Below, in pieces: positions 41,281-64,000 of a stretch of 64,000 nucleotides of DNA. Origin of the DNA: an uncultured Alphaproteobacteria bacterium (GTDB lineage Bacteria > Pseudomonadota > Alphaproteobacteria > HIMB59 > GCA-002718135); NCBI GenBank assembly GCA_902577945.1, contig CACHBB010000001.1, positions 109,344 to 173,343 of the forward strand, in the 5' to 3' direction. The notes below the pieces were generated by a model. That model was not told where the DNA came from and ran no database searches. It saw nothing but the letters and a program-made list of their open reading frames with translations. The position numbers and the translations under genes were made by a program. Within the stretch, counting starts at the first letter, position 1. Each line of letters begins with the position of its first letter.

Positions 41281-41300
41281 TTATTTAGGGTAATTTTGTA

Positions 41301-42859: not shown

Positions 42860-42891
42860 GGAAATATATACATCTAAAGTATTAAACTCGA

Positions 42892-43350: not shown

Positions 43351-43408
43351 AGAAATATGTATTTTTTATGAAAGTGTTTTTTTTTTATTAATAATATAAA
43401 CAAACATT

Positions 43409-45508: not shown

Positions 45509-45509
45509 A
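45464..45509 (+). repeat. Direct repeat A, copy 1 (ppk1 3' end)
   Basis: TCAGCAAAACTCAAATCTAGAGCTAAGTCTAATTTAAAAATTTGAA; 45/46 identical to 47784-47829. Confidence 0.93.
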
Positions 45510-45511
45510 AA

Positions 45512-45572
45512 TAGAATATAATCCCACTCACAACAATTGGACATAGCAGGAAGAAATAATATTGTGAGTGGT
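45512..45572 (-). ncRNA. Candidate Pho-regulated sRNA, copy 1
   Basis: Stem CCACTCACAA/TTGTGAGTGG (45524-45571), loop with TTTCTTCCTG; Pho-box-like promoter places +1 at 45572; 3' end approximate. Confidence 0.5.
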
Positions 45573-45714
45573 AAAGAGTATTTAAATTTTATTTTTTACA
45601 GCCGTGTTAATAGAATATTAAATTTTTATAAATTAAACTAATTTTTAAATTTCATTAATCTCAAATAAATTTTTTAGTTCTTTCAATTTGTTAAAAATTG
45701 AATCTTTTACTTCT
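45520..45714 (+). repeat. Degenerate direct repeat B, copy 1 (~195 bp: hairpin, promoter, arsC 3' remnant)
   Basis: Aligns by eye along its length with 50302-50497. Confidence 0.9.
45657..45714 (-). pseudogene. Remnant of arsC 3' end
   Basis: Near-identical to the last ~20 codons of arsC (50437-50497). Confidence 0.75.
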
Positions 45715-45734
45715 TAGTAACTATAATTTTAAAA

Positions 45735-46730
45735 TTAATTTTTTGCATTTACAATATTAGATAGAAATTGATTTGCACATCTATCCCAAGTAAATTGCAT
45801 TGCAAATTTTCTACAATCATTTCTATCAATCTTTAAGGCTTTTTTAAGTGAGTTTTCAATATCGTTATCAAGACTGTCAATTAATGAGTTTTTTAAAATA
45901 TCTTTAGGACCTGTTACTGGGTAAGCAGCCACTGGTGTTCCAGAGGCTAAAGACTCTAAAATTACATTTCCAAATGTATCTGTTTTGGATGGGAATACCA
46001 ACGCTTCAGCATTTGCATAATAATTTGCTAAGTCTTGACCTTTTTTCATCCCAACGAAAGATACATATGGATATTTATTTTGTAGTCGTTGTTTTTCTGG
46101 ACCATCTCCAACAACAATTTTATCCATCTTAGTTCTTATTTCTAAAAACGCTTCGATGTTTTTTTCTAATGAAACTCTACCAATGTAAACAATATACTTT
46201 TTCAGTCCTTTTCTTCTTTTTAAAGGATTAAATAATTCAGTATTAACTCCCCTTGACCAAATTTTAAGATTTTGAAATTGATATTTCGTTAATTCGTCAC
46301 GCATAGATACTGTTGGGACCAATACATTGCATGCATTTTTATGAAAATTTTTTAAAAAAGAGTACCCAATTATTTTTGGTATCATTATTCTTTGCTCTAA
46401 ATATTCTGGAAATCTCGTATGAAAAGAGGTTGTATATCTCAACTTATTATTCTCACAAAATTTTTTCCCCGCTATTCCAACTGGTCCTTCAGTAGCGATA
46501 TGTATAAAATCTGGATCAAAATTATTAAAAAATTTTTCTGTTATTTTTTTTGTATTAATTGCTAGTTTTATTTCTTTATACCAGGGATAGCTAAAATTAG
46601 TAAACATCATTGGGTGAAGTATGTCTATTTCATTCTTTTCTTTTAAAAATGGATTAATATGTTGGTATGTATTTACCACACCATTAACTTGGGGAAGCCA
46701 AGCATCGGTAATGATTGCTATTTTTTTCAC
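45735..46730 (-). CDS. agt: GT4 glycosyltransferase (Agt-like), copy 2, GTG start
   Basis: DAWLPQVNGVV, HIATEGP, FHTRFPEY, GRVSLEKN, TDTFGNVILES. Confidence 0.8.
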   Translation of the reverse strand: MKKIAIITDAWLPQVNGVVNTYQHINPFLKEKNEIDILHPMMFTNFSYPWYKEIKLAINTKKITEKFFNNFDPDFIHIATEGPVGIAGKKFCENNKLRYTTSFHTRFPEYLEQRIMIPKIIGYSFLKNFHKNACNVLVPTVSMRDELTKYQFQNLKIWSRGVNTELFNPLKRRKGLKKYIVYIGRVSLEKNIEAFLEIRTKMDKIVVGDGPEKQRLQNKYPYVSFVGMKKGQDLANYYANAEALVFPSKTDTFGNVILESLASGTPVAAYPVTGPKDILKNSLIDSLDNDIENSLKKALKIDRNDCRKFAMQFTWDRCANQFLSNIVNAKN

Positions 46731-47533
46731 ACTGCTACACTTTCTGGTATTTTGTTATATTTGTTGTGAAAAATTTTTTCTCTTTCAATCGACCAGTCAA
46801 TAAGAGATAATTGTCCCTCTTTATTTTCCACTAGCGCAGAACAACTCTCAACCCAATCACCATCATTGCAATATAACACTCCGTTTAATTTTTTTATAAC
46901 GGGCTTATGAATATGGCCGCACACAACAACATCGGCATTTGCTCTTTTAGCGCTATCAGATACGGCAAACTCAAAGTTAGAAATAAAATTCGTGGCTCTT
47001 TTTGTTTGATGTTTGAGAAATTGAGATAATGACCAATAAGACAGACCTAGTTTTCTTCTGACAAAATTTAGATAGTTATTCAACTTTAATATAAATTCGT
47101 ATAGGGATGACCCAATACTTGCCAGCCATTTAGCATTTATTATAACTGCATCAAATTCATCACCATGTAAAACAAGGGCATTTCTTCCATCAGCTAGTTT
47201 GTGTGTAAACTTATTTTTTATTGATATATTCCCTAGTGAAAAACTTGTGTAATTTTTTACAAGTTCGTCATGATTACCTGGGATAAATATAACTTTTGTA
47301 CCTTTTCTTGCTTTACGCAAAATCTTCTGGATAATGTCATTATGAGTTTGATGCCAATAAATTTTTTTTTTCATTCTCCATGCATCAATAATATCGCCAA
47401 CTAAAAATAAATATTTTGAATCTGTTGATCTCAAAAATTCAAGAAGCATTTCACTCTTGCTATTTTCTGTTCCAAGATGAAGATCAGATATCCATATAGT
47501 TCTATAATATGAAACTGATTGCTGATCTTTCAT
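46727..47533 (-). CDS. plcP: PlcP-type phospholipase C, copy 2
   Basis: ISDLHLG, GDIID, PGNHD, HGD, CGHIH, NDGDWVESC; paralog of 39477-40289. Confidence 0.85.
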   Translation of the reverse strand: MKDQQSVSYYRTIWISDLHLGTENSKSEMLLEFLRSTDSKYLFLVGDIIDAWRMKKKIYWHQTHNDIIQKILRKARKGTKVIFIPGNHDELVKNYTSFSLGNISIKNKFTHKLADGRNALVLHGDEFDAVIINAKWLASIGSSLYEFILKLNNYLNFVRRKLGLSYWSLSQFLKHQTKRATNFISNFEFAVSDSAKRANADVVVCGHIHKPVIKKLNGVLYCNDGDWVESCSALVENKEGQLSLIDWSIEREKIFHNKYNKIPESVAV

Positions 47534-47862: not shown

Positions 47863-49275
47863 TTAATTAATCGACTCAACGCCTTCTATATCAAATCCGT
47901 CTGCAATACTTGAAGAAATAGATCTGACAATACCATAACCTGAATCTTCTTGGACAAGTTCCATTCCAGTTCCATCACTATCATCATTATTTGATGTGGT
48001 AACATCTTGTGCCATGATCATAACATTGCCTGCTTCTTCTTCTTCGAAAACAAAACCTTTTCCACCATTGTCTTCAGATGATGAATTGATAACAAAAGCA
48101 CTTACATTTCCTGGACCTTCTTCAGAATGTTTATATCCATCATCTGTATTGCTTAGTGCAATTGTATCAATGATTGTCATGTTAATTGATCCTTCTTGTT
48201 CCTCATCAAAGTCAAGACCTTCATCCCAGTTACCAATAATTGTTGATCGAGTTACTTCAGCGTAGATATCTCCAGGACCTGCTTCATCCACATCAAATCC
48301 ATCGTCAACATCAATACCAAATTCATATTCTTCAACAAAACCACTGTCATAAAGACTTACTTCTCTTTCAAAACAACCATCATCTGGAGATCCAGTAATA
48401 GCAGGTGGTACAGCTGATTCAGTCATCTGACCATCTTCAAATTCACCTTCGTCTTCTTCAGGGAGATAGGCTTCCAAAATATCTGGGTGGCAATAATAAC
48501 CATTGTTATTAAATGATGTATTTTCAATCTGTGCAATAACTGAGCCAGCTTGACCTTCATCAAGCTCTACTCCATCTGCACCGACTCTCGTAAACGAAGA
48601 GTTTAAAATAGAAGCAATTAGATCTCCATTGTCTCTTTCATCTACACGCAGACCGTCGGCATCAAACATTCCTTGACCAACATTGTCAACAACTACATTA
48701 TTTAAGGAAACAGAAATAGAAGCTGGCGAACCGCCGCCTGCTCCTCCCCCGCCTGCACCACACGTTGCACCAACATCGCAATCGGATACATGAATCCCGT
48801 GGTTAGCAACATCATAAACCTTTACATCGTTAAGAACTAATTTAACCATTCCATATTGATTGTCTCTAACATTTAACAAAATTCCTTTACCACCTACACC
48901 ATCTAAATCAGCACGGTTTTCAATATTAAAACCTCCAGGACCTCTGAAATTTATTGAGTGTATAGACATATCACCGCCATTTGTTGATTCAAGAATTGTA
49001 AAATCATCCATAGCGTGAATTGTTTGGCCCTGACCATAAATAAATAATGGTGCTGTACTAGTATAACTTAAAGATGATAAAATTTTAATATTATTTCCAC
49101 TCTTTATATAAATTACATTTGCACCAGCCGACTTATTGGCATTTTCTATAGCTGCTCTAATAGATCCATCACCGCTATCCTTTGAATTAGAAACCACATA
49201 AGAATGTGCTAAAACAACATTAGTTAGAGAAACTATAGTACAGATAAGAAAAGTAATTATTAAATTATTTTTCAT
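47863..49275 (-). CDS. Secreted acidic protein, probable right-handed beta-helix, function unknown
   Basis: Signal peptide; VSNSKDSGDGSIRAAI cap motif; repeats of DG.x.DE..G about every 26-27 aa; start at MKNNL after AAGGAG. Confidence 0.75.
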   Translation of the reverse strand: MKNNLIITFLICTIVSLTNVVLAHSYVVSNSKDSGDGSIRAAIENANKSAGANVIYIKSGNNIKILSSLSYTSTAPLFIYGQGQTIHAMDDFTILESTNGGDMSIHSINFRGPGGFNIENRADLDGVGGKGILLNVRDNQYGMVKLVLNDVKVYDVANHGIHVSDCDVGATCGAGGGGAGGGSPASISVSLNNVVVDNVGQGMFDADGLRVDERDNGDLIASILNSSFTRVGADGVELDEGQAGSVIAQIENTSFNNNGYYCHPDILEAYLPEEDEGEFEDGQMTESAVPPAITGSPDDGCFEREVSLYDSGFVEEYEFGIDVDDGFDVDEAGPGDIYAEVTRSTIIGNWDEGLDFDEEQEGSINMTIIDTIALSNTDDGYKHSEEGPGNVSAFVINSSSEDNGGKGFVFEEEEAGNVMIMAQDVTTSNNDDSDGTGMELVQEDSGYGIVRSISSSIADGFDIEGVESIN

Positions 49276-49308
49276 AAAAATCTCCTTCATCATTATTAAA
49301 TATGAAGT

Positions 49309-49382: not shown

Positions 49383-50225
49383 TTAATTTAATATTGAGTT
49401 TTTATTACTAGGATCTAATCTATAAGTGCTATTCCTTAAAAATTTTGTAATCTCAATAAGATTGCCAATTTCTTTTATGGTTTCAAAGGGTATTCTTTGT
49501 CCAATATGAACATCAATTTTTTTTCCCATTCTTCTTTTAAGTTCATATATCATTAAAGAATATCGAAAGACTTGCCCAATTTTATCAGCAACATGAAAAA
49601 GTTCGCTATTTTGTCCTTCAAAAAAAATTGGGAGGACAGGTGATTGAGTTTTCATTATTATTTTTGAAGTAAATTGTTTCCATTCACGATCTATTGCTTT
49701 GATTCCTTTTTTTAATTTTGGTTTCGTTGAAACTGATCCTGATGGAAAAATGATTAGTGCCCCATTATTTCTTAAGTGTTCTTCGCATTCTTTACGTGCA
49801 GCGATATTATTTATTAAAGCATTTCTATTTTTTGAAAAATCAAGAGGAATAATTTTATTCTTAATAAGATCTGCTCCTTGTAAAACTTTATGCGTAATAA
49901 TTTTGTAATCTTGTCTAATTTTACTAATTAAAGAGCATATTGTAAGACCATCAGCTATTCCAAATGCATGGTTAGCGATTACTACAAGTTTGCCATTTTT
50001 AGGAATATTACTTTTAGAATGATAATGTGTCTGAACACGGAGACCTAATCTTTCAATTGCATCATGCCAAAAATTCTCTGGAGGTAAATTTTCTCTTAAA
50101 TAATCCTCATACAACTTACGTAACTTAATTTTACCCGTTCCCAATTCGGTTAATTGAATAATAATCTTTCCAACAGGATTAACTTCGGAGTTAGAAAAGG
50201 TAAGCGCTGGTTTATTAATTTTCAT
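49383..50225 (-). CDS. Lysophospholipid acyltransferase (PlsC family)
   Basis: ANHAFGIADG (Hx5D variant), IFPSGSVS, LPIFFEGQNS. Confidence 0.8.
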   Translation of the reverse strand: MKINKPALTFSNSEVNPVGKIIIQLTELGTGKIKLRKLYEDYLRENLPPENFWHDAIERLGLRVQTHYHSKSNIPKNGKLVVIANHAFGIADGLTICSLISKIRQDYKIITHKVLQGADLIKNKIIPLDFSKNRNALINNIAARKECEEHLRNNGALIIFPSGSVSTKPKLKKGIKAIDREWKQFTSKIIMKTQSPVLPIFFEGQNSELFHVADKIGQVFRYSLMIYELKRRMGKKIDVHIGQRIPFETIKEIGNLIEITKFLRNSTYRLDPSNKNSILN

Positions 50226-50256
50226 AAAATTTACTTTAAATTCTTAATTTTATAAT

Positions 50257-50274
50257 GTTAAACAATTGTTAAAG
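50257..50274 (-). promoter_or_regulatory. Pho-box-like site upstream of the acyltransferase
   Basis: CTTTAAC-AATT-GTTTAAC-N10-TAAGAA. Confidence 0.5.
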
Positions 50275-50292
50275 TACTCGAAAAAGGAGAAA

Positions 50293-50355
50293 TAAAAAAT
50301 TAATCCCACTCACAATTATTGGTAATTAGCAGGAGGAAATAATACTGTGAGTGGT
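50293..50355 (-). ncRNA. Candidate Pho-regulated sRNA, copy 2
   Basis: Stem CCACTCACA/TGTGAGTGG (50306-50354), loop with TTTCCTCCTG anti-SD, T-rich tail; predicted +1 at 50355. Confidence 0.55.
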
Positions 50356-50497
50356 AAGAGGCATTTAAATTTTATTGTTTACAGATAGATTAATGTAATA
50401 TTAAATTTTTATAAATTTAATTAATTTTTAACTTCATTAATTCTCAAATAAATTTTTTAGTTCTTTCAATTTATCAAAAATTGAATCTCTTACTTCT
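50302..50497 (+). repeat. Degenerate direct repeat B, copy 2
   Basis: Aligns with 45520-45714; includes the intact arsC 3' end. Confidence 0.9.
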
Positions 50498-51643: not shown

Positions 51644-52219
51644 TTATGCTTGTTTAGCTAAAAAAGATTTTCTTGCATCTTCTAAATAGGGACGAAAATG
51701 TTCAACATCGGGAGTTTTTTTATCTAAAATTTTTGCTAAATCATCAAATCTTCGAAGCTCTACTGCTTTATCCATAAAAGGTTTACTAATAAAATCATCT
51801 GCTTCTTCTTTTGTAAAAGGACCACCTTGAACTTTTAACGAAAGCTTTGATGCCTCTGATAAACTCTCATAATAACCCTCTTCTACACTTGATAAATATC
51901 TTTTTGAATCAACATGCGCTCTGATTGGTAAAATAACATCTTCACCAAAATATTTTTTTAAAAAATCCGCACCTAAATTTTCGTGATGACCATCTTTACC
52001 CTCGTGGATGGGATCGCCGTCTTCATATATGAGATGCCCTATATCATGGAGCAGGGCAGCTGCTATTGTTGGACCAGGTAATTTATGTTGTTCTGCCAAT
52101 TCAGCACATTGAAGGGCGTGCTCAAGTTGTGTCACATCCTCATTACCATATTGAATATCAGCACCTTTTGTTTTCAAAAGATCTAAGAGATAATCTACAA
52201 TATTTTCTTCCATCCTCAT
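51644..52219 (-). CDS. phnZ: Phosphonate-degrading HD-domain oxygenase (PhnZ/TmpB-like)
   Basis: EDVTQLEHALQCA, ALLHDIGH, HVDSKRYL, SLKVQGGP, LRRFDD. Confidence 0.85.
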   Translation of the reverse strand: MRMEENIVDYLLDLLKTKGADIQYGNEDVTQLEHALQCAELAEQHKLPGPTIAAALLHDIGHLIYEDGDPIHEGKDGHHENLGADFLKKYFGEDVILPIRAHVDSKRYLSSVEEGYYESLSEASKLSLKVQGGPFTKEEADDFISKPFMDKAVELRRFDDLAKILDKKTPDVEHFRPYLEDARKSFLAKQA

Positions 52220-52307: not shown

Positions 52308-53405
52308 ATGGATAAAAAATTATTAACCCCCGGCCCTCTCACGACATCGATGTCAACAAAAGAGGCTATGCTTCATGATTGGGGTTCGAGAGATACAAAA
52401 TTTATTAATCTCAATGCATCAATTAGAGATTCTCTTGTTAAATTAATAGACGGTGAAGATAAATATCAATGTGTTCCAATGCAGGGAAGTGGAACTTTTG
52501 CTGTAGAGTCGATGGTGAGCTCTCTTACTCAAAAAGATTCTAAAATTCTGATTCTGATCAATGGTGCTTACGGACAAAGAATGAAAAAAATGTGCACATA
52601 TTTAGGGAGAGATTTTATTGAATATGAAGTTGCTGAACATGAAGTACATGACATCAATAAAATTGAAGAGTTAATTGATAGCAACAACTTAACACACGTC
52701 TTTGCTGTATATTGTGAAACAACATCGGGTATTTTAAATCCTATTGAAGACATTGCAAAATTGGTTGAAGGGAAAAATTTATCGTTATTCATCGATGCAA
52801 TGAGTGCCTTTGGTGCATTACCCTTAAGTTCTAAAACAATTACTTTTGACGCTGTAGCCGCTTCATCAAACAAATGCTTAGAAGGTGTGCCAGGTGTTGG
52901 TTTCATTCTTGTAAAAAATGAAGTTATTCAAAATGCAAAAGGCAATAGTCACTCACTAAGTCTAGACTTGTATGATCAATGGCAAGCAATGGAAAAAAAT
53001 AAACAATGGCGATTTACACCTCCAACACACGTATTAGCTGCATTCAACCAAGCTATTGAAGAACATAAAGAACAAGGTGGGGTAGAGGGAAGAGGTAAAA
53101 GATATAAAAAAAATTGTGAAATTATTTGTAATGGAATGAAAGAGTTGGGATTTGAGCAACTACTTCCTGATAATTTACAAGCACCAATTATTATTACTTT
53201 TAAACAACCTAATGATCCTAAATTTAACTTTGAGCAATTTTATAATGCTCTTAGTGAAAAAGATTTTTTAATTTATCCAGGAAAACTAACAGTGGCAGAA
53301 ACTTTTAGAATTGGGTGTATTGGTAATTTAAATGAACAAGACATGATGGATACAATAAAAGCTGTAAAAGAAGTTGTTACTGAGTTGGGACTAACATTAA
53401 ACTAA
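52308..53405 (+). CDS. phnW: 2-aminoethylphosphonate--pyruvate transaminase
   Basis: LLTPGPLTTS, DWGSRD, QGSGTFAVE, DAMSAFG, SSNKCLEGVPG, QWRFTPPTH, IYPGKL. Confidence 0.96.
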   Translation: MDKKLLTPGPLTTSMSTKEAMLHDWGSRDTKFINLNASIRDSLVKLIDGEDKYQCVPMQGSGTFAVESMVSSLTQKDSKILILINGAYGQRMKKMCTYLGRDFIEYEVAEHEVHDINKIEELIDSNNLTHVFAVYCETTSGILNPIEDIAKLVEGKNLSLFIDAMSAFGALPLSSKTITFDAVAASSNKCLEGVPGVGFILVKNEVIQNAKGNSHSLSLDLYDQWQAMEKNKQWRFTPPTHVLAAFNQAIEEHKEQGGVEGRGKRYKKNCEIICNGMKELGFEQLLPDNLQAPIIITFKQPNDPKFNFEQFYNALSEKDFLIYPGKLTVAETFRIGCIGNLNEQDMMDTIKAVKEVVTELGLTLN

Positions 53406-53412: not shown

Positions 53413-54045
53413 ATGACAAAAGAAATTGAAATACCTTTAGTTAAAGCAACAAATGAAAATCTTAAAGGATATGGGTATTTAATCGATAGTTTTGAAAATA
53501 GTGATATTGAAATTGTTACTTGGCCAAAACAAGGATGGCGCGAAATAGAAGAGGGAACTGGTAATGAAGGTGGAACTACCGAAGGCTCTTTTGATACCTG
53601 GTGGCAAGGTGACGTGCTTTATGGGCAAAATAATGCTGTTCAACATAAAAGTGATTATGAAGTAGATGGAAAATATATACTGGGTTATGCCAATAATCCT
53701 GATCAAGAATTACAAAAAGATAAATATTCAGATCCAACAAAAATTTTTTTATGGCATGCAAATTATCATCCTGATGGAGGTCAGCTTTTCTTTCCTGAAG
53801 AAAATAAACCATTTATTTGTCCTTTAGCCTTACCGACAGACGACATTGAACCAGAACATTTTAAAGCATTTTATTGTGACGGATCAAAAGGTTTGTATAT
53901 TCATCCAAATATTTGGCATGAAGGGGTGTTTCCAGTTACAGAAAAACAATCTTTTCAAGGAAAACAAGGTAAAGTACATGCAAGAGTTAGTATTGATTTA
54001 AAAGAAGAGTTTTACAAATATATCTTTTTTAAAACTAGAATTTAA
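53413..54045 (+). CDS. Ureidoglycolate-lyase-like cupin protein
   Basis: AT.ENL.GYG, NYHPDGGQLFFP, YIHPNIWH. Confidence 0.65.
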   Translation: MTKEIEIPLVKATNENLKGYGYLIDSFENSDIEIVTWPKQGWREIEEGTGNEGGTTEGSFDTWWQGDVLYGQNNAVQHKSDYEVDGKYILGYANNPDQELQKDKYSDPTKIFLWHANYHPDGGQLFFPEENKPFICPLALPTDDIEPEHFKAFYCDGSKGLYIHPNIWHEGVFPVTEKQSFQGKQGKVHARVSIDLKEEFYKYIFFKTRI

Positions 54046-54056: not shown

Positions 54057-54866
54057 TTATTTTATACCCGAAGTTGCAAAACTCTCTACAAACTGTCTTT
54101 GAAAAATAATAAATGCAATTATTAGTGGTGCGGTTACCATTAATGTCCCTGCGCTTATAGTAGCCCACTCGATACCTGATTCCTCCATAGAAAAGATAGC
54201 TAAACCAACATTTAAAATTCTAGTTTCCTCTGAGTTAGTTATTATTAAAGGCCACAAATAATTATTCCAATGATAAGATATTGATACAAGTCCATAAGCT
54301 AAAAAAGTAGGTATAGATAATGGTATGTAAACATGCCATAAAATTCGTAATGCTCCAGCACCATCAATCCTCGCAGAATCATCTAGCTCTTTTGGAACAG
54401 TTTTGAAAGCTTGTCTTAAAACAAAAATTCCAAAAGCAGATGCAATGTAGGGAAGGCTAATTGCAGGAATGGTATCTATCAAATTTAAGAATTTAATTGT
54501 TTTATAATTTTCGATAAGAATGATTTCTGGATTAATCATTAGTTGAATTAAAACTAATCCAAAAAGTATGTTCCTAAAAGGAAACTCATATCTTGCAAAA
54601 GCAAATGCAGTCAGAGAACATAAGATAAACTGGCATGAAGTGGTCATTGTAACGTATATAAATGTGTTGAACATATATCTTGCAAAAGGAGCTTGTGACC
54701 AAGCATTTTCAAAATTGTATAAGGTCAGAGGGGCAAACAAATCAAATTTAACTTGATATTCTATTGGGTGTATCGAAGCCCAGATTGCATATAAGAGCGG
54801 TAGTAACCATAAAAATCCAAGTAACCAAGCACCAATAATATTAATATTTTTATAGAATGAATACAT
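54057..54866 (-). CDS. CUT1/UgpE-like ABC permease
   Basis: AFAFAR, LRQAFKTVPKELDDSARIDGA, WNNYLWPL. Confidence 0.9.
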   Translation of the reverse strand: MYSFYKNINIIGAWLLGFLWLLPLLYAIWASIHPIEYQVKFDLFAPLTLYNFENAWSQAPFARYMFNTFIYVTMTTSCQFILCSLTAFAFARYEFPFRNILFGLVLIQLMINPEIILIENYKTIKFLNLIDTIPAISLPYIASAFGIFVLRQAFKTVPKELDDSARIDGAGALRILWHVYIPLSIPTFLAYGLVSISYHWNNYLWPLIITNSEETRILNVGLAIFSMEESGIEWATISAGTLMVTAPLIIAFIIFQRQFVESFATSGIK

Positions 54867-54868
54867 TT

Positions 54869-55747
54869 TTATTGGTAATGGACCTTTCTATCCAATAAAA
54901 AAATTTGACCAATTCCTATTATTGACAATAATATAATTAGTAAAACCGATAATGTTATTGCGTATGCTGTATCCCAAAATTCAAAACCATTCTCATAAAT
55001 ATAATAGAGTAATAAAGCGCTGTTGTAATTTGGACCTCCACCAGTCATAGTGAATAAATGTTCTATTCGTGTAAAGGCAGTAATTACTGCATTGACTGAA
55101 ACAAATAATAAGGTTGGTGTTATCATTGGTAGTGTAATTTTGTAAAACATTTGCCAACTATTAGCCCCTTCAATAATTGCTGCCTCTTTCATTTCCCTAG
55201 GTATTCCTTGAAGAGCAGCTAGAAAAAAAATCATGTAAAAACCAGACTCTTTCCAAATACTTACAGCAATAATACCCCATAAAACTTGATCAGGGTTTCC
55301 TAAAATATTTGTATTTTGGAAACCAAATAAAGATCCAACTTGATCAATTAATCCAAAACCAGGAAGAAAAAAAAAGAGCCATATATTACCAACAGCTATT
55401 AAGGGTAAAACTACAGGTAAAAAATATGCAAAACGAAGCAATGGTCTACCGGGTAACTTGCTGTTTACCCATTGCGCCATAATTATTGCAATAATTATTG
55501 AAGATGGGATTGTAGAAATTGCATAAACAATATTGTTAGACATAACCTTCCAAAAAATGGGGTCTGAAAACATATGTTCATAATTTTCAATACCTTTAAA
55601 CTTACTTGGTTTTCTCCCTTTAGGAGTAGAAAAAAAACTCATATAAATTGTTTTAACAACAGGTATGTGAACAAAAGTTAATAATAATATGAATCCAGGC
55701 GATAAAAGTAAAATTACTGGTATATGTTTTTTAATTTTAGTTATCAT
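54869..55747 (-). CDS. CUT1/UgpA-like ABC permease
   Basis: WKESGFYM, LAALQGIP..EAA.IEGA, MTGGGP. Confidence 0.9.
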   Translation of the reverse strand: MITKIKKHIPVILLLSPGFILLLTFVHIPVVKTIYMSFFSTPKGRKPSKFKGIENYEHMFSDPIFWKVMSNNIVYAISTIPSSIIIAIIMAQWVNSKLPGRPLLRFAYFLPVVLPLIAVGNIWLFFFLPGFGLIDQVGSLFGFQNTNILGNPDQVLWGIIAVSIWKESGFYMIFFLAALQGIPREMKEAAIIEGANSWQMFYKITLPMITPTLLFVSVNAVITAFTRIEHLFTMTGGGPNYNSALLLYYIYENGFEFWDTAYAITLSVLLIILLSIIGIGQIFLLDRKVHYQ

Positions 55748-55782
55748 AAAAAAAACGGCACTATTATTAACTAGTGCCGTTT
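55748..55782 (-). terminator. Hairpin with T tail after the substrate-binding gene
   Basis: AAACGGCACTA-N8-TAGTGCCGTTT followed by T run. Confidence 0.75.
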
Positions 55783-55794
55783 GATATTTTTTCT

Positions 55795-57069
55795 TTATCT
55801 GTAATCTTTTAGTATTTTATCAATTTCGGCATGCGCCTCTAAAAGAGCAGTTTTAGGATCTTTTTCCCCAGCAACTGCTGCTTCTAACGCTCTATTAAAA
55901 ATTGAAACAGTTTTAGGTTGCTCGTAGGTCGAAAATTCTGGACCTGCATACTCCAACTGATCTCTTGCAACAGCTGGATATGGAAATTCTTTTAAAAATT
56001 CTTTCATTTCATCAGACTCCCAAGTCTCAGCTCTAGGTGCAACATAACCAGTGGCTTTTGTCCAGGCAACAGACTGTTTAGGTTCTGTTATCCATTTTAC
56101 AAAGTCTTTTGTTGCTTGCTGTTCCTCTTCTGTAGTGTCAATTGATAGATAAAAATTTCCTCCTCCAACTGGTGCTCCAAATTGTTTAATACCAGGAATG
56201 AAAGCTACACCCCAATCAAACGGAGCATTATTTCTGACGTTTGTCAGATTTCCAGTAGTAGTCCACATCATTGCAGTTTGACCCTCAAAAAATGCCTGTG
56301 GAGTAGATCCCCATTCAAGTATACCTGGTCTCATCACCCCTTCAGTAGTACTAAGAGCTACAAGTTTTTCTAATGCTTCAATGGCTTCTGGTGAGTTAAT
56401 ATATGTTTCAGTGCCATTATCGTTCATAATTTTTCCACCATTGCCATAAACAATTGCACTAAATAACCAGTATGGAAAACCAGCAGATGGAATTCTTATT
56501 CCGTATTGACTTACATTTCCATCAGAATCTTTGATTGTTAATTTTTTTGCAACTTCTAGCTGTTCATCCCAAGTCTTAGGTGGATTTTCAGGATCTAATC
56601 CCGCAGCTCTAAAAGCATCCTTATTGTAATAGAGTACTGGTGTTGATCTTTGAAATGGAATCCCATAAGTTTTACCATCAACTTGACCATTAGCCATAAA
56701 AGCAGGATAAAAACCACCTATCCAATTATCAATTTCGTCTTGAGTTAATATATCGTCCCAAGCCATTACACATTCTTCGTCTATATATTTAAAAATTGTA
56801 ACAGCAATCATAACTGATGTTGCAGGAGCTGTTCCAGATTTACATGCTGTTAGAAATTTAGTATCTGTATCTGTATAACTTCCTGTGAAAACAGCTTTCA
56901 CATTTACATCTGGATTTAATTTTGTGTAATCTTCTGCAAATTTCTCAATTGCCTGAGCAGCTCCACCACCTACAGCGACTGGAAAATAAAATTCTAGGTC
57001 AATAGCCCTTACACTTAATGATGTTATTACCACGGTTAAAGAGATAATAAGTAATTTAATTATATTCAT
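55795..57069 (-). CDS. UgpB-like ABC substrate-binding protein
   Basis: Signal peptide; YFPVAVGG, GIPFQRSTPVLYYNKDAF, GGGNFY, TGY. Confidence 0.85.
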   Translation of the reverse strand: MNIIKLLIISLTVVITSLSVRAIDLEFYFPVAVGGGAAQAIEKFAEDYTKLNPDVNVKAVFTGSYTDTDTKFLTACKSGTAPATSVMIAVTIFKYIDEECVMAWDDILTQDEIDNWIGGFYPAFMANGQVDGKTYGIPFQRSTPVLYYNKDAFRAAGLDPENPPKTWDEQLEVAKKLTIKDSDGNVSQYGIRIPSAGFPYWLFSAIVYGNGGKIMNDNGTETYINSPEAIEALEKLVALSTTEGVMRPGILEWGSTPQAFFEGQTAMMWTTTGNLTNVRNNAPFDWGVAFIPGIKQFGAPVGGGNFYLSIDTTEEEQQATKDFVKWITEPKQSVAWTKATGYVAPRAETWESDEMKEFLKEFPYPAVARDQLEYAGPEFSTYEQPKTVSIFNRALEAAVAGEKDPKTALLEAHAEIDKILKDYR

Positions 57070-57119
57070 TATAAATCTCCTATTTTTATCAATGAAAGTT
57101 TTTTGGGTAAGATATAAAT

Positions 57120-57137
57120 ATTAATATTTTGTTAAAT
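57120..57137 (-). promoter_or_regulatory. Pho-box-like site upstream of the UgpB-like gene
   Basis: ATTTAAC-AAAA-TATTAAT-N10-TACCCA. Confidence 0.45.
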
Positions 57138-57209
57138 TTTAACTAATTTATTTTAAATTTTTTAATTCTTTTTTATTATTTTTTTTTTATGTATATTTAG
57201 TAAATATTT

Positions 57210-58004
57210 ATGATGAAAATTATTCACCTCTCTGACCCCCATATTCATACAAATGAATTATTTGGCATAAACTCTGTAGAAAGATTCAAATGTGCTTTAG
57301 AACACATTGTTTTAAATCACCGTGATGCAGATATGTTTGCTATAACTGGTGATATAACAGACATTGGAGATGAAGATTCTTACAATCTGTTTAAAAAAAT
57401 AATAAAAGAATTTAATCTACCCCTAAACCTTGAACCAAAACTAATACCTGGTAATCATGACAATCGTGAAAATTTTAAAAAAACTTTAAATCATGTGCCA
57501 ACTGATAGTAATGGATTTATCCAATACTACGATGACTATAAGAATAATAGATTTATTTTTATAGATACTCTAGAGCACGGAACACACATTGGTCATTATA
57601 CGTTAAAAAGACAAGAATGGTTGATTGATCTTTTAAATAACACAGATGATAATAAAGAAATTTATATATTTATGCACCATAATCCATTGGCACTGGTTAG
57701 AGATGAAAGCGATGGTATTGGATTAAAACATAAAAAAGAATTTAAAGAAATATTGATTAGTAAAAAAAATATTAAACATATTTTTTTTGGTCATCAGCAT
57801 ATTACTAGTTCCGGATCATATCTTGGTATAAGTTTTTCCTCGCCAAGGAGCACATGGTCACCTCTAATACCAAATTTTTCATCTGAATATAGGCTTGGTT
57901 TAGCTAATACTGATCCAAATTACAATGTAGCAATTTTAAATAAAAATGGAATAGTAATTCATACTGAAGATTTTTTAAAAACAGAAGTTAATTGGTTTAA
58001 ATAA
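57210..58004 (+). CDS. Calcineurin-like phosphodiesterase (GpdQ/CpdA family)
   Basis: SDPH, TGDITD, PGNHD, MHH.P, FGHQH. Confidence 0.88.
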   Translation: MMKIIHLSDPHIHTNELFGINSVERFKCALEHIVLNHRDADMFAITGDITDIGDEDSYNLFKKIIKEFNLPLNLEPKLIPGNHDNRENFKKTLNHVPTDSNGFIQYYDDYKNNRFIFIDTLEHGTHIGHYTLKRQEWLIDLLNNTDDNKEIYIFMHHNPLALVRDESDGIGLKHKKEFKEILISKKNIKHIFFGHQHITSSGSYLGISFSSPRSTWSPLIPNFSSEYRLGLANTDPNYNVAILNKNGIVIHTEDFLKTEVNWFK

Positions 58005-58007: not shown

Positions 58008-59114
58008 TTATTTTTTTTCGATTACAAATATTTCATTGTTAAAATAAAGACCTTTATTTTTAGCAACAATGTTTTGGACTACTTTTTCGTAATTTTTTGT
58101 TTTTTCTACCTTCATTACTTTTTCGTCATCCATTTGATTGACATATATGGAGGCATTCCAAGCAGAAAAAACTAATGATGTCGCTATACCTCCACTGATT
58201 TCTGTTGGTAGAGCTCTCAATTTACACTTAATAATTCTTTTTTCTCCAAAAGATAATCTACTTAATAAATCTTTATTTAAATTTTTCTTAAGATAGGAAA
58301 TGATACTATTTCCAAGAGAAGGAAAAGGGTCCTCTTTTGGCCAAATTTTACGAATTATTTCATTAGCAGGATCTTTTCCTGAAGCATGAATAGTTAATAA
58401 TTTCCCTTTTGATTTTAACGCTCGAATCATTGGTTCGATGACATATTTTGATTTCTTTTCTGCTGAAATTCTTGAACGATAAGGCTGTGAAGCAATAATA
58501 AGATCAAATTTATTATCTGATTTTTTTTTAGTTGGTATTAATTCATTAACATTAAATTCTTGATCTTCACGGTAAATAACCATGACTGAAGGCTCCTTAT
58601 AAGTATGGTTACCTGACTTTTTATTAATTTCTATATTCCATTTTTTTTCTAAAAATTCATTTTGTTTTCTTAATTGTTGGGCAAATTCAAGAGAGGTGTC
58701 ACCTTTCAATTTAATAATATTCCAATTAATTTTTTTCTGTTTAACGTCATTTTTTGATTTTAGGTTTGCGGCTTCAGCGTAGTGTAGATTTGAAATGACA
58801 AAAACAGTATTCTTATGCTCAACAAACCTATCGGGTAATTTTTCCAAACCTAATCTTACATCTTCTATGCTTATTTCTTTTGTGCAAACTAATAGAGGTA
58901 CGTTAGGCTTAGCCTCGTGGCACTGACGCATAACATTCATAAGTAAGGAACCATCACCCATACCAGCATCAAATATTTTTATACCAGGTTTTTGAGGTTT
59001 AATTTTATTTACGTGAGGGCGTATCGCATCAGCAATTTGATTTTTTTCATTTGTTGTTGTGACAAATAATAAGTATTTTTGTCTGTTATCATAAAACCTG
59101 AAATTTTTTTTCAT
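58008..59114 (-). CDS. Hypothetical protein with SAM-methyltransferase-like motifs
   Basis: IFDAGMGDG glycine loop, FDLIIASQPY. Confidence 0.55.
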   Translation of the reverse strand: MKKNFRFYDNRQKYLLFVTTTNEKNQIADAIRPHVNKIKPQKPGIKIFDAGMGDGSLLMNVMRQCHEAKPNVPLLVCTKEISIEDVRLGLEKLPDRFVEHKNTVFVISNLHYAEAANLKSKNDVKQKKINWNIIKLKGDTSLEFAQQLRKQNEFLEKKWNIEINKKSGNHTYKEPSVMVIYREDQEFNVNELIPTKKKSDNKFDLIIASQPYRSRISAEKKSKYVIEPMIRALKSKGKLLTIHASGKDPANEIIRKIWPKEDPFPSLGNSIISYLKKNLNKDLLSRLSFGEKRIIKCKLRALPTEISGGIATSLVFSAWNASIYVNQMDDEKVMKVEKTKNYEKVVQNIVAKNKGLYFNNEIFVIEKK

Positions 59115-59116
59115 TA

Positions 59117-60229
59117 CTAATAAAGTCCCATTGATTTAGCAGAAGAGATGAAGGCTTCTTTATTGCCAATAAAGTTTTTACCTCGTTCCCCTAAAAACGC
59201 ATCATCTACTATATTATTCCATTCTTGAACAGGAACTTTTATTTCATTTAAGTTTAGAGGAACCTCTAAAGAACGCATAAATTCACTCAGATGATTTGCG
59301 GCATTCTCTAGGTTATCGTTAAAAATTAATTTTAGTCTCTCCTCAGCGACACTATCAATTCCAACCATACTTTTAGTAATCATGGGTAATGTAAATGAGC
59401 AAGCAATACCATGTTGAATGCCATAATTGAGCGTCACAGGGTATGATAGATTGTGCGCAATAGCAGTTTTCGTATTGGAAAACGCTAAGCCAGCATGAAC
59501 GCATGCCAGTGCAATGTTTGAACGTAATACAACATTTCTTAAATCTTTAGCGAGAAGTGGTAAATTTTCTAATACTAATTTTGATGCTTGTATTGCATGA
59601 GAAGCAGAAATTGGGTTTGCATTAATATTCCAAATACTTTCCATTGAATGAGAGAGAGCATCTAAACCTGTTGAAATGGTCAAGCCTAAAGGCTTATCAA
59701 CCATAATTGATGTATCGATAATTGCTTTTTCTGCATAAAGAGATTTATGCGCCAAAGATAATTTATTATTTTTTTCTTTATCCCATATTGTGGCCCAACA
59801 CGTAAGCTCACTTGATGTTCCTGATGTTGTAGGTATTGCAATAATCTTAATTGGATTTTCTACTCTTGGACTTTTCTTATTGCGAACAAAATCTGTTAGA
59901 TATTCTTGTTTATCTTTAAATGCAGCAATTGCTTTAGCTGTGTCTGTAACAGAGCCACCACCTATAGCTAAAATATAATCTACCGATTCATTAATTGAAG
60001 AAAATTTATTTTGTAGCTCTAAAATATCCTTATAATCTGGATTAGGCTGAACATCGGTCATAATGGATAAAGGTGGATTTGAAGAAGATTTTAATTCATC
60101 GCTATATTTTTTAAAAATTTCTTCTGGATGAGTGATTATGATGTACTTTTTATTTTTAACAGCATCATGTACTTCTTTAAATCTATTTTCTCCAAAGATA
60201 ATTTCAACAGGGTTAAAATAATTCCACAT
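59117..60229 (-). CDS. Iron-containing alcohol dehydrogenase, phosphonate-associated (PsrA/phosphonoacetaldehyde reductase-like)
   Basis: NP, GGGS.TD.AK, PTTSGTSSE.T.WATIWD, DALSHSME, AHNLSY, HG.AC. Confidence 0.82.
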   Translation of the reverse strand: MWNYFNPVEIIFGENRFKEVHDAVKNKKYIIITHPEEIFKKYSDELKSSSNPPLSIMTDVQPNPDYKDILELQNKFSSINESVDYILAIGGGSVTDTAKAIAAFKDKQEYLTDFVRNKKSPRVENPIKIIAIPTTSGTSSELTCWATIWDKEKNNKLSLAHKSLYAEKAIIDTSIMVDKPLGLTISTGLDALSHSMESIWNINANPISASHAIQASKLVLENLPLLAKDLRNVVLRSNIALACVHAGLAFSNTKTAIAHNLSYPVTLNYGIQHGIACSFTLPMITKSMVGIDSVAEERLKLIFNDNLENAANHLSEFMRSLEVPLNLNEIKVPVQEWNNIVDDAFLGERGKNFIGNKEAFISSAKSMGLY

Positions 60230-60233
60230 TACC

Positions 60234-61313
60234 TTAAATTGATTTTGCCGCTTTAGTTAAAATTGTCATTTTCTCAATTGCTTGTTCTCGGGTAAAGAAA
60301 CCTAAACCACAATCTGGTGCAGCTATTAAACGGTGTTCATCAATATGTTCAAGTGAATCTTTGATACGAACTCTTACTTCTTCAACAGACTCCATTCTAC
60401 TTTTTGCAATATCAATAAATCCAAAAATTACTTTTGTTTTAGTAAATTTTTCTAAAAGATTTAAATCATTATGCCTATGTGAATCTTCTAAAGATACTTC
60501 ATCAATAGTTGAATCATCTACAAGTGATGCAATTCTATCATAAGCATCTAGATCAGCCTTTTTATACCCTTCTGAATCTAGTGAGTTGGGATAACCACAA
60601 CAAATATGGCAAACGCGTTGCACTTCTTTAGGAATACCATGCATCATTCTTTCTAAATTTTCCATACCATATGAATGAGCTTCATCAGGCTTTCTAGCAA
60701 ATACTGGTTCATCAATTTGAATATACTGACAACCTGCATCTACAAGTGCCTTGATTTCTTTATTGAGAGCTAATGCTAAATCAAAACCAAGTTTTTTCAT
60801 GTCATCATAGTAGTTGTTGGCAATTGAATCTGTAATTGTCATTGGTCCAGGTAGGGTAATTTTAACTGGATTTTTTGTAAATTGTTGTGCACTCTTCCAG
60901 TCTAGATGCATACGTATTTCTTTACTTGAAATCGGTGCAACAATAGTTGGAAGATCAGCTTCGAACGCGCCTTGTCTTACTGACTTATGTGTAACTTCTT
61001 TAAAACTTACTCCATTTAAAAATCGACATTGATATAATACGTAACTCTCACGTCTGACTTCTCCATCTGTTGGAACATCAATACCCGCATTTACTTGATC
61101 AGTTATAACTTCTTTAATTGCTGCTAAAAATAATTTTTCAGCATCTGCACCTGCAGACTCTAATGCTTTTTCATATGCGCCAGGTGACCAATTTGATAAT
61201 AATCCTTTTGACGCTTTTCTCTCTTCTTCTGATTTTGTCCCTAAAAACCAATCTTGAATAGGTGTTTGTTTCGGTTTTGGATAAGCACCTATTGTAGTTG
61301 TTTTAAGAGGCAT
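60234..61313 (-). CDS. Cobalamin-independent methionine synthase II-like (single-barrel MetE family) protein
   Basis: TDGEVRR, LPGPMT, QIDEP, HICCGY, SLE, PDCGL zinc ligands; no N-terminal barrel. Confidence 0.85.
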   Translation of the reverse strand: MPLKTTTIGAYPKPKQTPIQDWFLGTKSEEERKASKGLLSNWSPGAYEKALESAGADAEKLFLAAIKEVITDQVNAGIDVPTDGEVRRESYVLYQCRFLNGVSFKEVTHKSVRQGAFEADLPTIVAPISSKEIRMHLDWKSAQQFTKNPVKITLPGPMTITDSIANNYYDDMKKLGFDLALALNKEIKALVDAGCQYIQIDEPVFARKPDEAHSYGMENLERMMHGIPKEVQRVCHICCGYPNSLDSEGYKKADLDAYDRIASLVDDSTIDEVSLEDSHRHNDLNLLEKFTKTKVIFGFIDIAKSRMESVEEVRVRIKDSLEHIDEHRLIAAPDCGLGFFTREQAIEKMTILTKAAKSI

Positions 61314-61345
61314 CTATTTTTACTCCCATTTAAATTTAAAATAAA

Positions 61346-61370
61346 ACAGCGGCTTTTATAAAGCCGCTGT
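61346..61370 (-). terminator. Hairpin after second substrate-binding gene
   Basis: ACAGCGGCTTT-N3-AAAGCCGCTGT followed by T-rich tail. Confidence 0.75.
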
Positions 61371-61400
61371 AATAAAAAGTTAATAATAAATAATCTCAAA

Positions 61401-62654
61401 TTACATAAGATCGTTTATTTCTTCCATCATTTCTTCTTGGAGATCACCCATATCATCAGCGTCGCCTGTAGCAATTTCTTCTGTGTAATCATAGATTACC
61501 TGTGTAACAGCTAATCCATTTTCTCCAGGATATGCAAACCAATCTGCAAGAAGTGGAAGTTGTTCAACTGCAGTAAGTTTATTAGGGTTTTTACTATAGA
61601 AATCACCTAATAATTCATTCGCTGCTTTGTTTGGTGGAACATATCCAGTTGTTTCAGCAACTAATGCAGCACCGATACCTGATGTTATGAACTTTAAGAA
61701 AGTCCATGCAGCATCAACTCTTGCTGGATCATCAGATGTAGACACTAACATTGCAGCGTTTCCACCTGCTGGTAATCTTGCAGGTGTTCCATTGTTAACT
61801 CCAGCCATTCCAGGGAATGGTGCAGTCTTTAAAACAAAGTCTGCCTTTGCAGCATTAACTGAACCCAAGCTTGAAGTAGACCAGAACATCATACCAATTG
61901 TACCTGCGTTAAACGCAGCTTGACCATCAGCAATTGAATAGTTTGGCATATTACATCCGCTCATGATTGCTTTCATTTGCTCTAACGTTGCAAGTCCTGC
62001 ATCACCACCCATATTTACAGCTCCATCTTTAACCATTGGAACATTCTGAGTGTGCATTAATGCTTGGTGGAACCAGTTACCTGTGATGTTCCAACCAAAG
62101 TATAGAGTTCCTTTACCTGCTGCTTCCAATTTATTACATGCTGCAATAACTTCGTCCCAGTTAGTTGGAATACTATTTACACCTGCTTCAGCTAATAAAT
62201 CCATGTTATAATATCCAACTGGCGTTGATACAGAAAATGGTAATCCATAAACTTCACCACCAAATGTTGAAAGACTTAACATAGCAGAATGGTAACCATC
62301 TTTTTCAAAAGCAGCTTCTTTTGCAATAAATGGCTCTAAAGACTTAGCAATACCTTTGTCAACTAGAGGTGCTTGTCTGTTAAGACCTTGCATTGTTACA
62401 TCTGGTAAATTACCTGAAGTAGACTCTCTGAAGATTGTTGCAGTTGCATCCTCATAGTTTTCATAAGTTGCTCTAAATTTAACTTGAATATCTGGATGTG
62501 CTTTTTCAAACTCTGGCATAATAGCTTGAAACGTTACATCGAATAATCCTGAATAAGGATAAGCTACTTCTATTTCTATAGACTTAGCTGAATTAACAGA
62601 ACCATAAAAACCAAAAGCTAATACGGCTGCAAATCCTGTAATTAATTTTTTCAT
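61401..62654 (-). CDS. UgpB-like ABC substrate-binding protein
   Basis: Signal peptide; GLPFSVSTPVGYYN, PAGGNA, AWTFLKF, TGYVP. Confidence 0.85.
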   Translation of the reverse strand: MKKLITGFAAVLAFGFYGSVNSAKSIEIEVAYPYSGLFDVTFQAIMPEFEKAHPDIQVKFRATYENYEDATATIFRESTSGNLPDVTMQGLNRQAPLVDKGIAKSLEPFIAKEAAFEKDGYHSAMLSLSTFGGEVYGLPFSVSTPVGYYNMDLLAEAGVNSIPTNWDEVIAACNKLEAAGKGTLYFGWNITGNWFHQALMHTQNVPMVKDGAVNMGGDAGLATLEQMKAIMSGCNMPNYSIADGQAAFNAGTIGMMFWSTSSLGSVNAAKADFVLKTAPFPGMAGVNNGTPARLPAGGNAAMLVSTSDDPARVDAAWTFLKFITSGIGAALVAETTGYVPPNKAANELLGDFYSKNPNKLTAVEQLPLLADWFAYPGENGLAVTQVIYDYTEEIATGDADDMGDLQEEMMEEINDLM

Positions 62655-62705
62655 TTAATCCCTCCGATTCAAATATAATATTAATCTAACACGTAGCTTC
62701 AAAGG

Positions 62706-62734
62706 GTTACAATTTTATTACGAAAATATTACTA
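62706..62734 (-). promoter_or_regulatory. Pho-box-like triple repeat
   Basis: TAGTAAT-ATTT-TCGTAAT-AAAA-TTGTAAC-N10-TACGTG. Confidence 0.7.
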
Positions 62735-62790: not shown

Positions 62791-63999
62791 TTACCAAGGT
62801 AGCGAAAAGGTTTTTACATTAGTAAAACTTTTCATTGCTTCAATAACACCCTCTTTGTAACCAAGACCTGAATCTTTAATTCCTCCAAAAGGAGACATTT
62901 CAATTCTATAACCTGGAACCTCCCAAATATTTACCGTACCAACATTTAAACCTTGAATATATTTTTTTGCTCGCATGAAGTTATTTGTACATACACCAGA
63001 TGATAATCCGAATGCGGTTGAATTAGATATTTTCATTACAGCTTCATCGTCATTAGGCACACGAATGATTGGGATAACTGGACCAAATGTTTCTTCTAAA
63101 ACTAATTCACTTTTAGGATCAACATGATCTACAACTATTGGAGGTAACAAAGCACCCTTTCTTCCAGGGTGATATAAAATTTTTGCGCCGTCTTCTTCAG
63201 CCATAGAAACTCTTTTATCAAAAAGTTCTGCAGCTTGAGCATTAACGACTGTACCTAAGTCTGTTTCCATATTCATAGGATCACCAAATTTAATTTTCTT
63301 AGCACGCTCAAGAGCCATTTCAACAAATTGATCTGCAATAGATTCTTGAACCAGTATTCTTTTAACAGCTGTACAACGTTGACCAGAATTTTTTGTTGCT
63401 CCCGTTACAGCTAGCTCAACAGCTTTTTTAAGATCATCACCATCTAAGTCATTTAAAACAATTAATGGATCATTACCACCTAGCTCAAGAACTGTTCTTT
63501 TGTATCCAGCTTGTTCAGCAATTAATTTTCCTACACCTACACTGCCTGTAAAAGTAATGAGATCAATATTTGGATTCTTGATCATTTCTGATCCGATATC
63601 TTGAGGCAATCCAGTTACAACTGAAAACATTTCTGGTGGAAGACCTGCTTCATATAAAACATCAGCGAGTACCATTGCTGTTAAAGGTGTTAATTCTGTC
63701 TGCTTACATACTGTACAATTATTAGTTGCAATTGAAGGAGCAATTTTATGCGCTACCATATTTAAAGGGTGATTAAATGGAGTGATTGCTGAAATTGCTG
63801 TTAAAGGTTCTCTTATGGTAAATATTTTTCTCGCTTTTCCATGTGGAGTTAAATCACAAGAAAATATTTCTCCATCATCAAGAATACAAAGTTGAGCCGT
63901 TAATGAAAATACATCAAAAGCTCTTCCTACTTCGTATAGAGAATCTTGTTTTGAAATACCAAGTTCTAAAGTAATAATATCAGAAATTTCTTCTTTTCT
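62791..63999 (-). CDS. phnY: Phosphonoacetaldehyde dehydrogenase (5' end beyond window)
   Basis: Frame open to window edge: [51 protein letters not shown]. Confidence 0.92.
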
Positions 64000-64000
64000 T

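Follow-up and report, generated by a model that had tools for sequence, protein, structure and literature searches.

Within a 64,000-nucleotide stretch of an uncultured alphaproteobacterial genome (GenBank contig CACHBB010000001.1, positions 109,344 to 173,343; the whole stretch is called the window below), we analysed four open reading frames (ORFs) that follow phnY on the minus strand at 58008-62654 and encode a solute-binding protein, a MetE-like zinc enzyme, an iron-dependent alcohol dehydrogenase (Fe-ADH) and a methyltransferase-fold protein. The run consists of three separately inherited modules within the phnW-phnA-phnY (2-aminoethylphosphonate, AEP) cluster of the HIMB59 clade. The MetE-like family linked to the importer represents a variant of the core methionine synthases that has not been described, and we put at roughly 0.4 the probability that its member in the window is a homocysteine methyltransferase with trimethyl-AEP (M3AEP) as the methyl donor, acting within an importer module that is likely controlled by phosphate starvation. 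The ORF and gap check (gaps of 87, 4 and 2 bp) bore out an earlier sequence-only reading of the same DNA as far as it described four same-strand genes behind a triple Pho-box-like site with the last three genes 4 and 2 bp apart; its further claim, that the four genes form a single feeder branch for phosphonate degradation, is not supported by the distribution of the genes.

Among 101 genomes of the family, we identified the MetE-like gene of the phosphonate island in 59 and the binding protein (at least 93% identity) in 58; the two occur together in 57 genomes, and the three mismatches are all at contig ends. The Fe-ADH gene is present in 64 genomes and the methyltransferase-fold gene in 85, nearly always as a single copy. 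Loci without the binding protein and the MetE-like gene are also without the ATP-binding cassette (ABC) genes beyond phnA, and phnY then directly precedes the Fe-ADH gene or the methyltransferase-fold gene. Because the ABC genes beyond phnA vanish with them, the importer and the MetE-like gene form a single unit that flanks phnA-phnY and is acquired or lost as a whole. Comparison of 80 loci shows all four genes behind phnY in 61, phnY followed directly by the methyltransferase-fold gene in 11, and phnY with only the Fe-ADH and methyltransferase-fold genes in 3, the remaining 5 being cut short; one locus (L038) has the other three genes without the methyltransferase-fold gene. The Fe-ADH gene accompanies the MetE-like gene in 58 of 59 genomes, the exception being a contig end, and occurs without it in 6 genomes (one at a contig end), where it lies directly after phnY. 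Since the methyltransferase-fold and Fe-ADH genes each occur without the importer and the MetE-like gene, a single four-gene operon with a shared pathway is ruled out.

The MetE-like protein (60234..61313, minus strand, 359 aa, Meth_synt_2) has the MetE catalytic barrel without the folate-binding domain, the combination that marks a core methionine synthase, and the closest fold to its model is that of MesD (3rpd; template-modelling (TM) score 0.83, 30% identity). A zinc-thiol enzyme had been proposed from the sequence alone, and the residues agree with this: the Zn ligands H236, C238, E276 and C335 (equivalent to H641/C643/E665/C726) are kept in 73-74 of 74 aligned members, and E85 and D201 (E484/D599), which bind the amino group of homocysteine, in all 74, the roles being those defined in PMC7857596. 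The motif HxCCGYP is present in 118 of the 120 best homologues, and the window protein carries an extra cysteine, Cys239. Against PRK09121, which we take to be a MesD-type model, it scores 193.8 bits (cut-off 392). MesX (PF08908) was found in 0 of 5 relatives that are at least 90% complete and is absent from the matches of the window genome, the same search being positive in 3 of 81 other genomes; a B12-binding protein (PF02310) was found in 0 of 5 such relatives, with controls positive in 12 of 14. Membership of MesD is ruled out by the PRK09121 score below cut-off together with the missing MesX, and membership of MesA, MesB or MesC by the finding of a PF02310 corrinoid protein in 0 of the 5 relatives searched. 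Because neither MesX nor a B12-binding protein was found in these near-complete relatives, a small-molecule methyl donor is likely. Of 61 family genomes, 51 have a PF02574 homocysteine methyltransferase (the 82%-complete window genome is not one of them), and ordinary methionine supply is therefore independent of the MetE-like gene of the island. The HxCCGYP family is rare: it occurs in 16 of 401 genomes of the class and in 0 of 300 other genomes of the phylum sample. In a quick tree built without partial or short proteins, the phosphonate-linked members fall into several separate subclades and the active-site columns are near-invariant. A paralogue of about 50% identity with the same motif lies, in L026, L035, L036 and L037, tail to tail with genes for an alanine dehydrogenase and an omega-aminotransferase, and upstream of it is a PehA-like esterase or a polyamine-type importer.

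We searched for phosphonate markers within 8 kb of MetE-like matches in a class sample of 400 genomes and, with a 71% homologue as query, in metagenomes; the markers TmpA, TmpB and phnS2 were picked from these same loci, although their NCBIfam naming is independent. Of the 17 non-self matches in the class sample, 8 have a marker. Four of these (L025, L029, L031 and L032) have tmpA-like, tmpB-like and metE-like genes in a row on one strand, with a gap of less than 70 bp in front of the metE-like match; the marker is tmpAB nearby in a fifth, a phnS2 importer in two and phnA in one. TmpA scores above its NCBIfam cut-off in L030 and L031, and TmpB in L030. The tmpA-like/tmpB-like/metE-like run is repeated in L188. 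Among 58 distant metagenome loci, 17 have a marker, which in 14 is phnW, phnA or phnY. The metE-like gene adjoins phnW or phnWAY with no tmp gene or esterase visible in L162 and L164-L169, and is joined to genes for a TIGR03329-like oxidase and a HAD hydrolase in L186 and L189. In L153 and L160, phnW, a dimethylglycine (DMG)-dehydrogenase-like gene, a phnS2 importer and the metE-like gene occur together, which may be read, by analogy, as a full counterpart of the ladder from betaine through DMG to sarcosine. Other recurring neighbours are DMG-dehydrogenase-like genes, betA, betB, choline sulfatase, a BCCT carrier, PehA-like esterases and TIGR03329-like oxidases. TmpAB is reported to convert M3AEP to betaine and phosphate (PMC10574752), and M3AEP is favoured as the donor because it is the sole compound that suits the tmpAB contexts as well as the phnWAY ones. 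The contexts point to an N-trimethyl donor instead of the esters of 2-hydroxyethylphosphonate (HEP) that had been suggested earlier as substrate.

With M3AEP as donor, the ABC system would import a quaternary-amine phosphonate, either free or as an ester, and the metallophosphoesterase close by would release the head group. The MetE-like barrel would then activate homocysteine as a Zn-thiolate for attack on an N-methyl group, as in BHMT, moving one methyl from M3AEP to give methionine and dimethyl-AEP. A flavin oxidase or DMG-dehydrogenase-like enzyme, encoded outside the cluster, would convert dimethyl-AEP to phosphonoacetaldehyde or AEP, which would pass to PhnW, PhnY and PhnA. Genes of the DMG-dehydrogenase-like type and of the DAO family occur elsewhere in the window genome.

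Several findings count against M3AEP as the donor. The cluster of the window has no oxidase for dimethyl-AEP, and the equivalent of S433, the serine that binds the homocysteine carboxylate, is alanine in 58 of 74 members, including the window protein (Ala10). By a hand count, about 80 of 101 family genomes have the approximately 50% paralogue at a non-phn site. No more than two TmpA proteins and one TmpB exceed their cut-offs, and several tmp-like genes are fragmented; of the class-level loci 9 of 17, and of the distant metagenome loci 41 of 58, show no marker, many of them being short. Kin genomes and loci are not independent of each other. Co-occurrence with phosphonate genes, which the sequence-only reading had named as its check, held in that the family recurs beside such genes in several lineages, but not for the nearest relatives outside the clade (67-72% identity, L138-L151), of which 0 of 14 have a phosphonate marker nearby and most have a gabD-like gene beside them.

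These last relatives bear also on a different explanation, that the protein is a general core methionine synthase with a protein or cofactor donor, a passenger of the island that takes no part in phosphorus use. Such a function would suit the fold and residues, which are those of core synthases, the position of one member behind metK (L144) and the lack of phosphonate neighbours around the nearest relatives. We nevertheless consider it unlikely: the gene is strictly co-inherited with one importer, the run has a Pho-like site, tmp and phn neighbourhoods recur in separate subclades, neither MesX nor a corrinoid protein was found in the five relatives, and a PF02574 enzyme and the core paralogue are usually present as well.

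The binding protein (61401..62654, minus strand, 417 aa) is a CUT1, UgpB-like solute-binding protein (SBP_bac_8/SBP_bac_1) that scores 65 bits against UgpB (NF008211), below the cut-off of 411, and has no match to TIGR03261 (phnS2) at E 0.001, by which an AepX/PhnS2 identity is ruled out. Of ten loci with homologues in other Alphaproteobacteria, nine have a metallophosphoesterase gene next to the homologue and one is a short contig; phosphonate markers were found near 0 of these 10. Because the homologues adjoin phosphoesterases and not phn genes, the imported form may be an ester; the cargo may, by the same neighbourhoods, be a phosphodiester such as glycerophosphocholine, which would speak against a phosphonate. 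A distant locus (L145, G+C content 50%) has the same importer (64% identity), a phosphoesterase and a 71% MetE-like gene. In the window, a calcineurin-like metallophosphoesterase found by family scans (57210..58004, plus strand) is the candidate esterase for freeing an imported head group; it occurs in most island loci, whether or not these have the importer. The ABC ATPase and two permeases lie outside the window (G000:C1:174991-177966, plus strand), divergent from phnA.

Glycine betaine is the main rival donor: the protein would be a glycine betaine:homocysteine methyltransferase of MetE fold, and the importer and phosphoesterase would yield choline from glycerophosphocholine or phosphocholine, giving phosphorus and, once the choline is oxidised to betaine, methyl groups. 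The tmpAB genes directly upstream fit betaine, the TmpAB product, equally well, and betaine is also what the tmpAB, betAB, choline sulfatase and carnitine genes around family members L029-L032 produce. DMG-dehydrogenase-like genes adjoin in L023 and L025, a BCCT carrier and metF are found in L145, the UgpB-like binding protein has a phosphoesterase as its partner, and the window genome has betA- and betB-like genes. A gene of BHMT fold beside an importer with a glycerophosphodiesterase, in genome G039, also favours betaine. What betaine leaves unexplained is the adjacency to phnW or phnWAY in the seven loci that show no tmp gene or esterase; moreover, the rarity of the family would be odd for so common a substrate, and most family genomes already have a PF02574 enzyme. 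On balance we regard betaine as a rather improbable donor, less so than a protein or cofactor.

In G039, the PF02574 homocysteine S-methyltransferase gene (L249:7265-8170) lies within the phn cluster, adjoins a Ugp-type importer with a glycerophosphodiesterase, and occurs where the MetE-like gene is not present. It is unrelated to the MetE-like protein and possibly a functional replacement of it, seen once; its place inside the cluster counts in favour of M3AEP, and that the BHMT-like case is a single genome weakens this use.

The Fe-ADH (59117..60229, minus strand, 370 aa) has TIGR03405 as its best family, with 363 bits (below the cut-off of 424) against 159 for the next family. Its residues D190, H194, H259, H273, K156, T255, Y263 and R349 match the PhpC residues D191/H195/H260/H274, K157, T256, Y264 and R349, a match made by spacing (offset -1; offset 0 for R349) and not by direct alignment to the P. 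fungorum sequence. It is a PF00465 enzyme beside phnY-phnA, as befits the PhpC type, whose genes adjoin phnX or phnY-phnA. PhpC homologues beside phnY-phnA are reported to oxidise HEP to phosphonoacetaldehyde, so that oxidation of HEP to the PhnY substrate is already published (PMC13576164, Piazza et al. 2026); neither methionine nor methyltransferases are mentioned in the accessible text of that paper. The earlier assignment of the Fe-ADH as an enzyme of HEP and phosphonoacetaldehyde is thereby strengthened, the residues of HEP dehydrogenases being present, and we predict that this PhpC-type dehydrogenase likely oxidises HEP to phosphonoacetaldehyde independently of the MetE-like module.

The sequence-only reading had linked the two enzymes in one chain, in which the zinc enzyme removes an amine or ester alkyl group to give HEP and the neighbouring dehydrogenase feeds PhnY. 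This fits the presence of the Fe-ADH gene in nearly all genomes with the MetE-like gene, 4 bp downstream of it in the window; PehA-like esterases or metallophosphoesterases are often nearby, and the extra Cys239 might mark a different chemistry. However, we found no Fe-ADH gene near members of the MetE-like family outside the window clade, in either the 17 class-level or the 72 metagenome loci, so that the product of the MetE-like protein is probably not HEP, and the six genomes with Fe-ADH directly behind phnY do without the MetE-like gene. Anionic esters are, as a matter of general chemistry, poor alkyl donors. The chain is the least probable of the explanations considered, and we give it little credence.

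The methyltransferase-fold protein (58008..59114, minus strand, 368 aa) has only a weak Methyltransf_31 match; its model shows a class I S-adenosylmethionine (SAM)-methyltransferase fold (Foldseek E 1e-9, mean predicted local distance difference test score 79), with histamine N-methyltransferase as the best fold match (TM score 0.44-0.50) and a glycine-rich motif I (DAGMGDG). A PDB sequence search gave nothing useful, an Atlas search gave generic names only, and a profile search gave 946 relatives, none of them named. Eight genomes of other genera carry the gene with no phn context around it. Among 27 class-level loci, for which 95 of 141 candidate neighbour frames within 1.5 kb flanks were scanned, we identified metF in 10 and metK in 2 and saw no phn gene; the unpublished genome G339 was left out of these 27 and is counted only in the tally of 29/301. 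A role as a phosphonate enzyme is not supported, given the non-phn contexts in other genera and the metF and metK neighbours instead. The gene is a conserved family gene, probably of the methionine/SAM cycle, and its product may be a SAM-cycle enzyme or a SAM sensor; it is not part of the importer module and happens to lie here. Many homologues have an extra N-terminal domain of 60 aa, and the four tested (L213, L218, L219 and L220) match the phage protein family phrog_7669. This domain looks like a helix-turn-helix, and the domain-bearing family is possibly a SAM-sensing regulator that has lost the domain in the window clade.

Upstream of the binding-protein gene, direct repeats with an 11-bp period (62706..62734, minus strand; TAGTAAT-attt-TCGTAAT-aaaa-TTGTAAC) form the triple Pho-box-like site. 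The site scores 16/21 against a Pho consensus and ties with 3 others for the top among 346 upstream regions, which is a weak test, as pstS itself scores only 13/21. The two proximal repeats are the sole match with at most 2 mismatches to the 18-mer upstream of the genome's own phoB (1.2 Mb, both strands); nine sites have three mismatches. The core is retained in most relatives. In a comparison of five incomplete genomes (62-75% complete), the state of the site is concordant with PhoB: the three genomes in which no PhoB was found (G061, G063 and G013) have a decayed site, and the two with PhoB (G073 and G091) retain it in part. We infer PhoB binding at 62706-62734 from these patterns, and Pho-type control of the run is likely. 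Between the binding-protein and MetE-like genes, a hairpin (61346..61370, minus strand; 11-bp stem, U-rich flanks, z-score -4.0), whose stem core is in all intergenic variants listed, is terminator-like and would be a putative terminator or mRNA stabiliser; the sequence-only reading noted neither this hairpin nor the ABC genes outside the window. A scan for sigma-70 promoters did no better than chance. In four RNA libraries, contigs span the whole set of four genes and each junction between them; they show neither a single transcript nor relative expression levels.

The run is preceded by phnY, which encodes phosphonoacetaldehyde dehydrogenase (62791..64000, minus strand, above the TIGR03250 cut-off; its start is outside the window), and then, outside the window, by phnA upstream of it and the divergent ABC genes. 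Downstream follow the metallophosphoesterase, a second Ugp-type importer without an ATPase, a ureidoglycolate-lyase-like gene, phnW for the AEP transaminase (52308..53405, plus strand, above family cut-offs) and a gene for a PhnZ/TmpB-like HD oxygenase (51644..52219, minus strand; TIGR03276 203 bits, cut-off 215; TmpB 157 bits, cut-off 300). This oxygenase is conserved, and the cluster holds no dioxygenase to partner it; five relatives have TauD-type homologues elsewhere in their genomes, scoring under the TmpA cut-off. The ureidoglycolate-lyase-like gene (53413-54045) comes after phnW in almost every island locus of the genus. The second importer, with a binding protein, permeases and its own metallophosphoesterase variant (54057-58004), is found in a minority of loci, and the same spot in other loci holds a different importer with a glycerophosphodiesterase, which suggests a swappable cassette. 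In a relative without the MetE-like module, phnW is followed by a TIGR03329-like aminophosphonate oxidase (L250:10677-12098) and an ABC importer, and ORFs of similar length are at the same place in L118, L125 and L135. Further left in the window lies a pst/phoU/phoBR/ppk island (31912-47533) with duplicated LpxH-like and glycosyltransferase genes, which resembles the fGIp versions of PMC10734472. The near-identical loci come from marine Alphaproteobacteria. We presume that these belong to the HIMB59/AEGEAN-169 clade, an assignment made partly through likeness to the phosphate island of PMC10734472. Elsewhere in the window are a ZnuA-like protein with a very long DDH repeat and a second His-rich segment (28309-29901), an acidic secreted-type protein of 476 aa that is present in some relatives only and matches nothing in Pfam or NCBIfam (47863-49293), and two similar intergenic stretches (45500-45740 and 50225-50437), each with an inverted repeat around CCACTCACA, past the ends of minus-strand genes.

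In the literature covered, the known route for M3AEP needs two iron oxygenases. PMC10590968 gives TmpAB as the only described M3AEP route and reports that PbfD1 oxidises dimethyl-AEP and that none of its oxidases takes M3AEP. The AEP pathway is described as common and transcribed in one AEGEAN-169 clade (PMC11366302), and the role of core-MetE homologues in aerobic marine bacteria is called unclear or questionable in PMC12478193 and PMC12366255. We found no open-access paper that links a MetE-like gene, or TmpAB and a methionine synthase, to phosphonate clusters; the accessible text of PMC12366243, PMC13712998 and PMC10308909 has nothing on a link between MetE-like genes and phosphonates. If M3AEP is the donor, phosphorus, carbon and a methyl group would be obtained from one molecule without oxygenases, and core-MetE homologues of aerobic marine bacteria would have a job; of the 101 genomes sampled from this family, which is abundant in the open ocean, 59 have the module. 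More tentatively, and with some doubt, the HxCCGYP proteins could form a fifth core methionine synthase family that needs no folate, B12 or partner and uses M3AEP as donor, providing a non-oxygenase entry to PhnW-PhnY-PhnA that couples the mineralisation of phosphonates in the sea to the synthesis of methionine in abundant bacteria with streamlined genomes.

Among known systems, UgpBAEC-GlpQ serves Pho-controlled glycerophosphodiester uptake and is similar in its CUT1 importer, Pho control and phosphodiesterase partner, whereas the UgpB score of the window protein is far below the cut-off and the genes are split around phnA-phnY. The PbfA-PbfG proteins (PMC10590968, PMC12366243) are likewise encoded by accessory genes that widen the substrate range of PhnW-PhnY-PhnA, although none is described, in the accessible text, as having a MetE fold or acting on a quaternary amine. 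The PhpC-type HEP dehydrogenase (PMC13576164) shares with the window enzyme the Fe-ADH family, the position beside phnY-phnA and, by spacing, the metal- and phosphonate-binding residues; the window enzyme differs in its score below the TIGR03405 cut-off and in a cluster that also has phnW, which that paper calls uncommon. The TmpA/TmpB pathway (PMC10574752) has the same proposed substrate, M3AEP, and members of the MetE-like family lie directly behind tmpA- and tmpB-like genes, but TmpA and TmpB are oxygenases and the window cluster is without TmpA. MesD (Price et al. 2021, PMC7857596) resembles the window protein in its single barrel without a folate domain, its His-Cys-Glu-Cys Zn set and its Glu and Asp for the homocysteine amino group, from which the window protein departs in its identity of about 30%, the HxCCGYP motif, the mostly alanine equivalent of Ser433, the missing MesX and the linkage to an importer and phosphonate genes. 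Finally, the reaction type proposed here is that of BHMT and the BhmT of SAR11 (PF02574; PMC12478193), in which the thiolate of Zn-bound homocysteine accepts an N-methyl group of a quaternary amine, whereas the window protein belongs to a different protein family and its proposed donor is a phosphonate.

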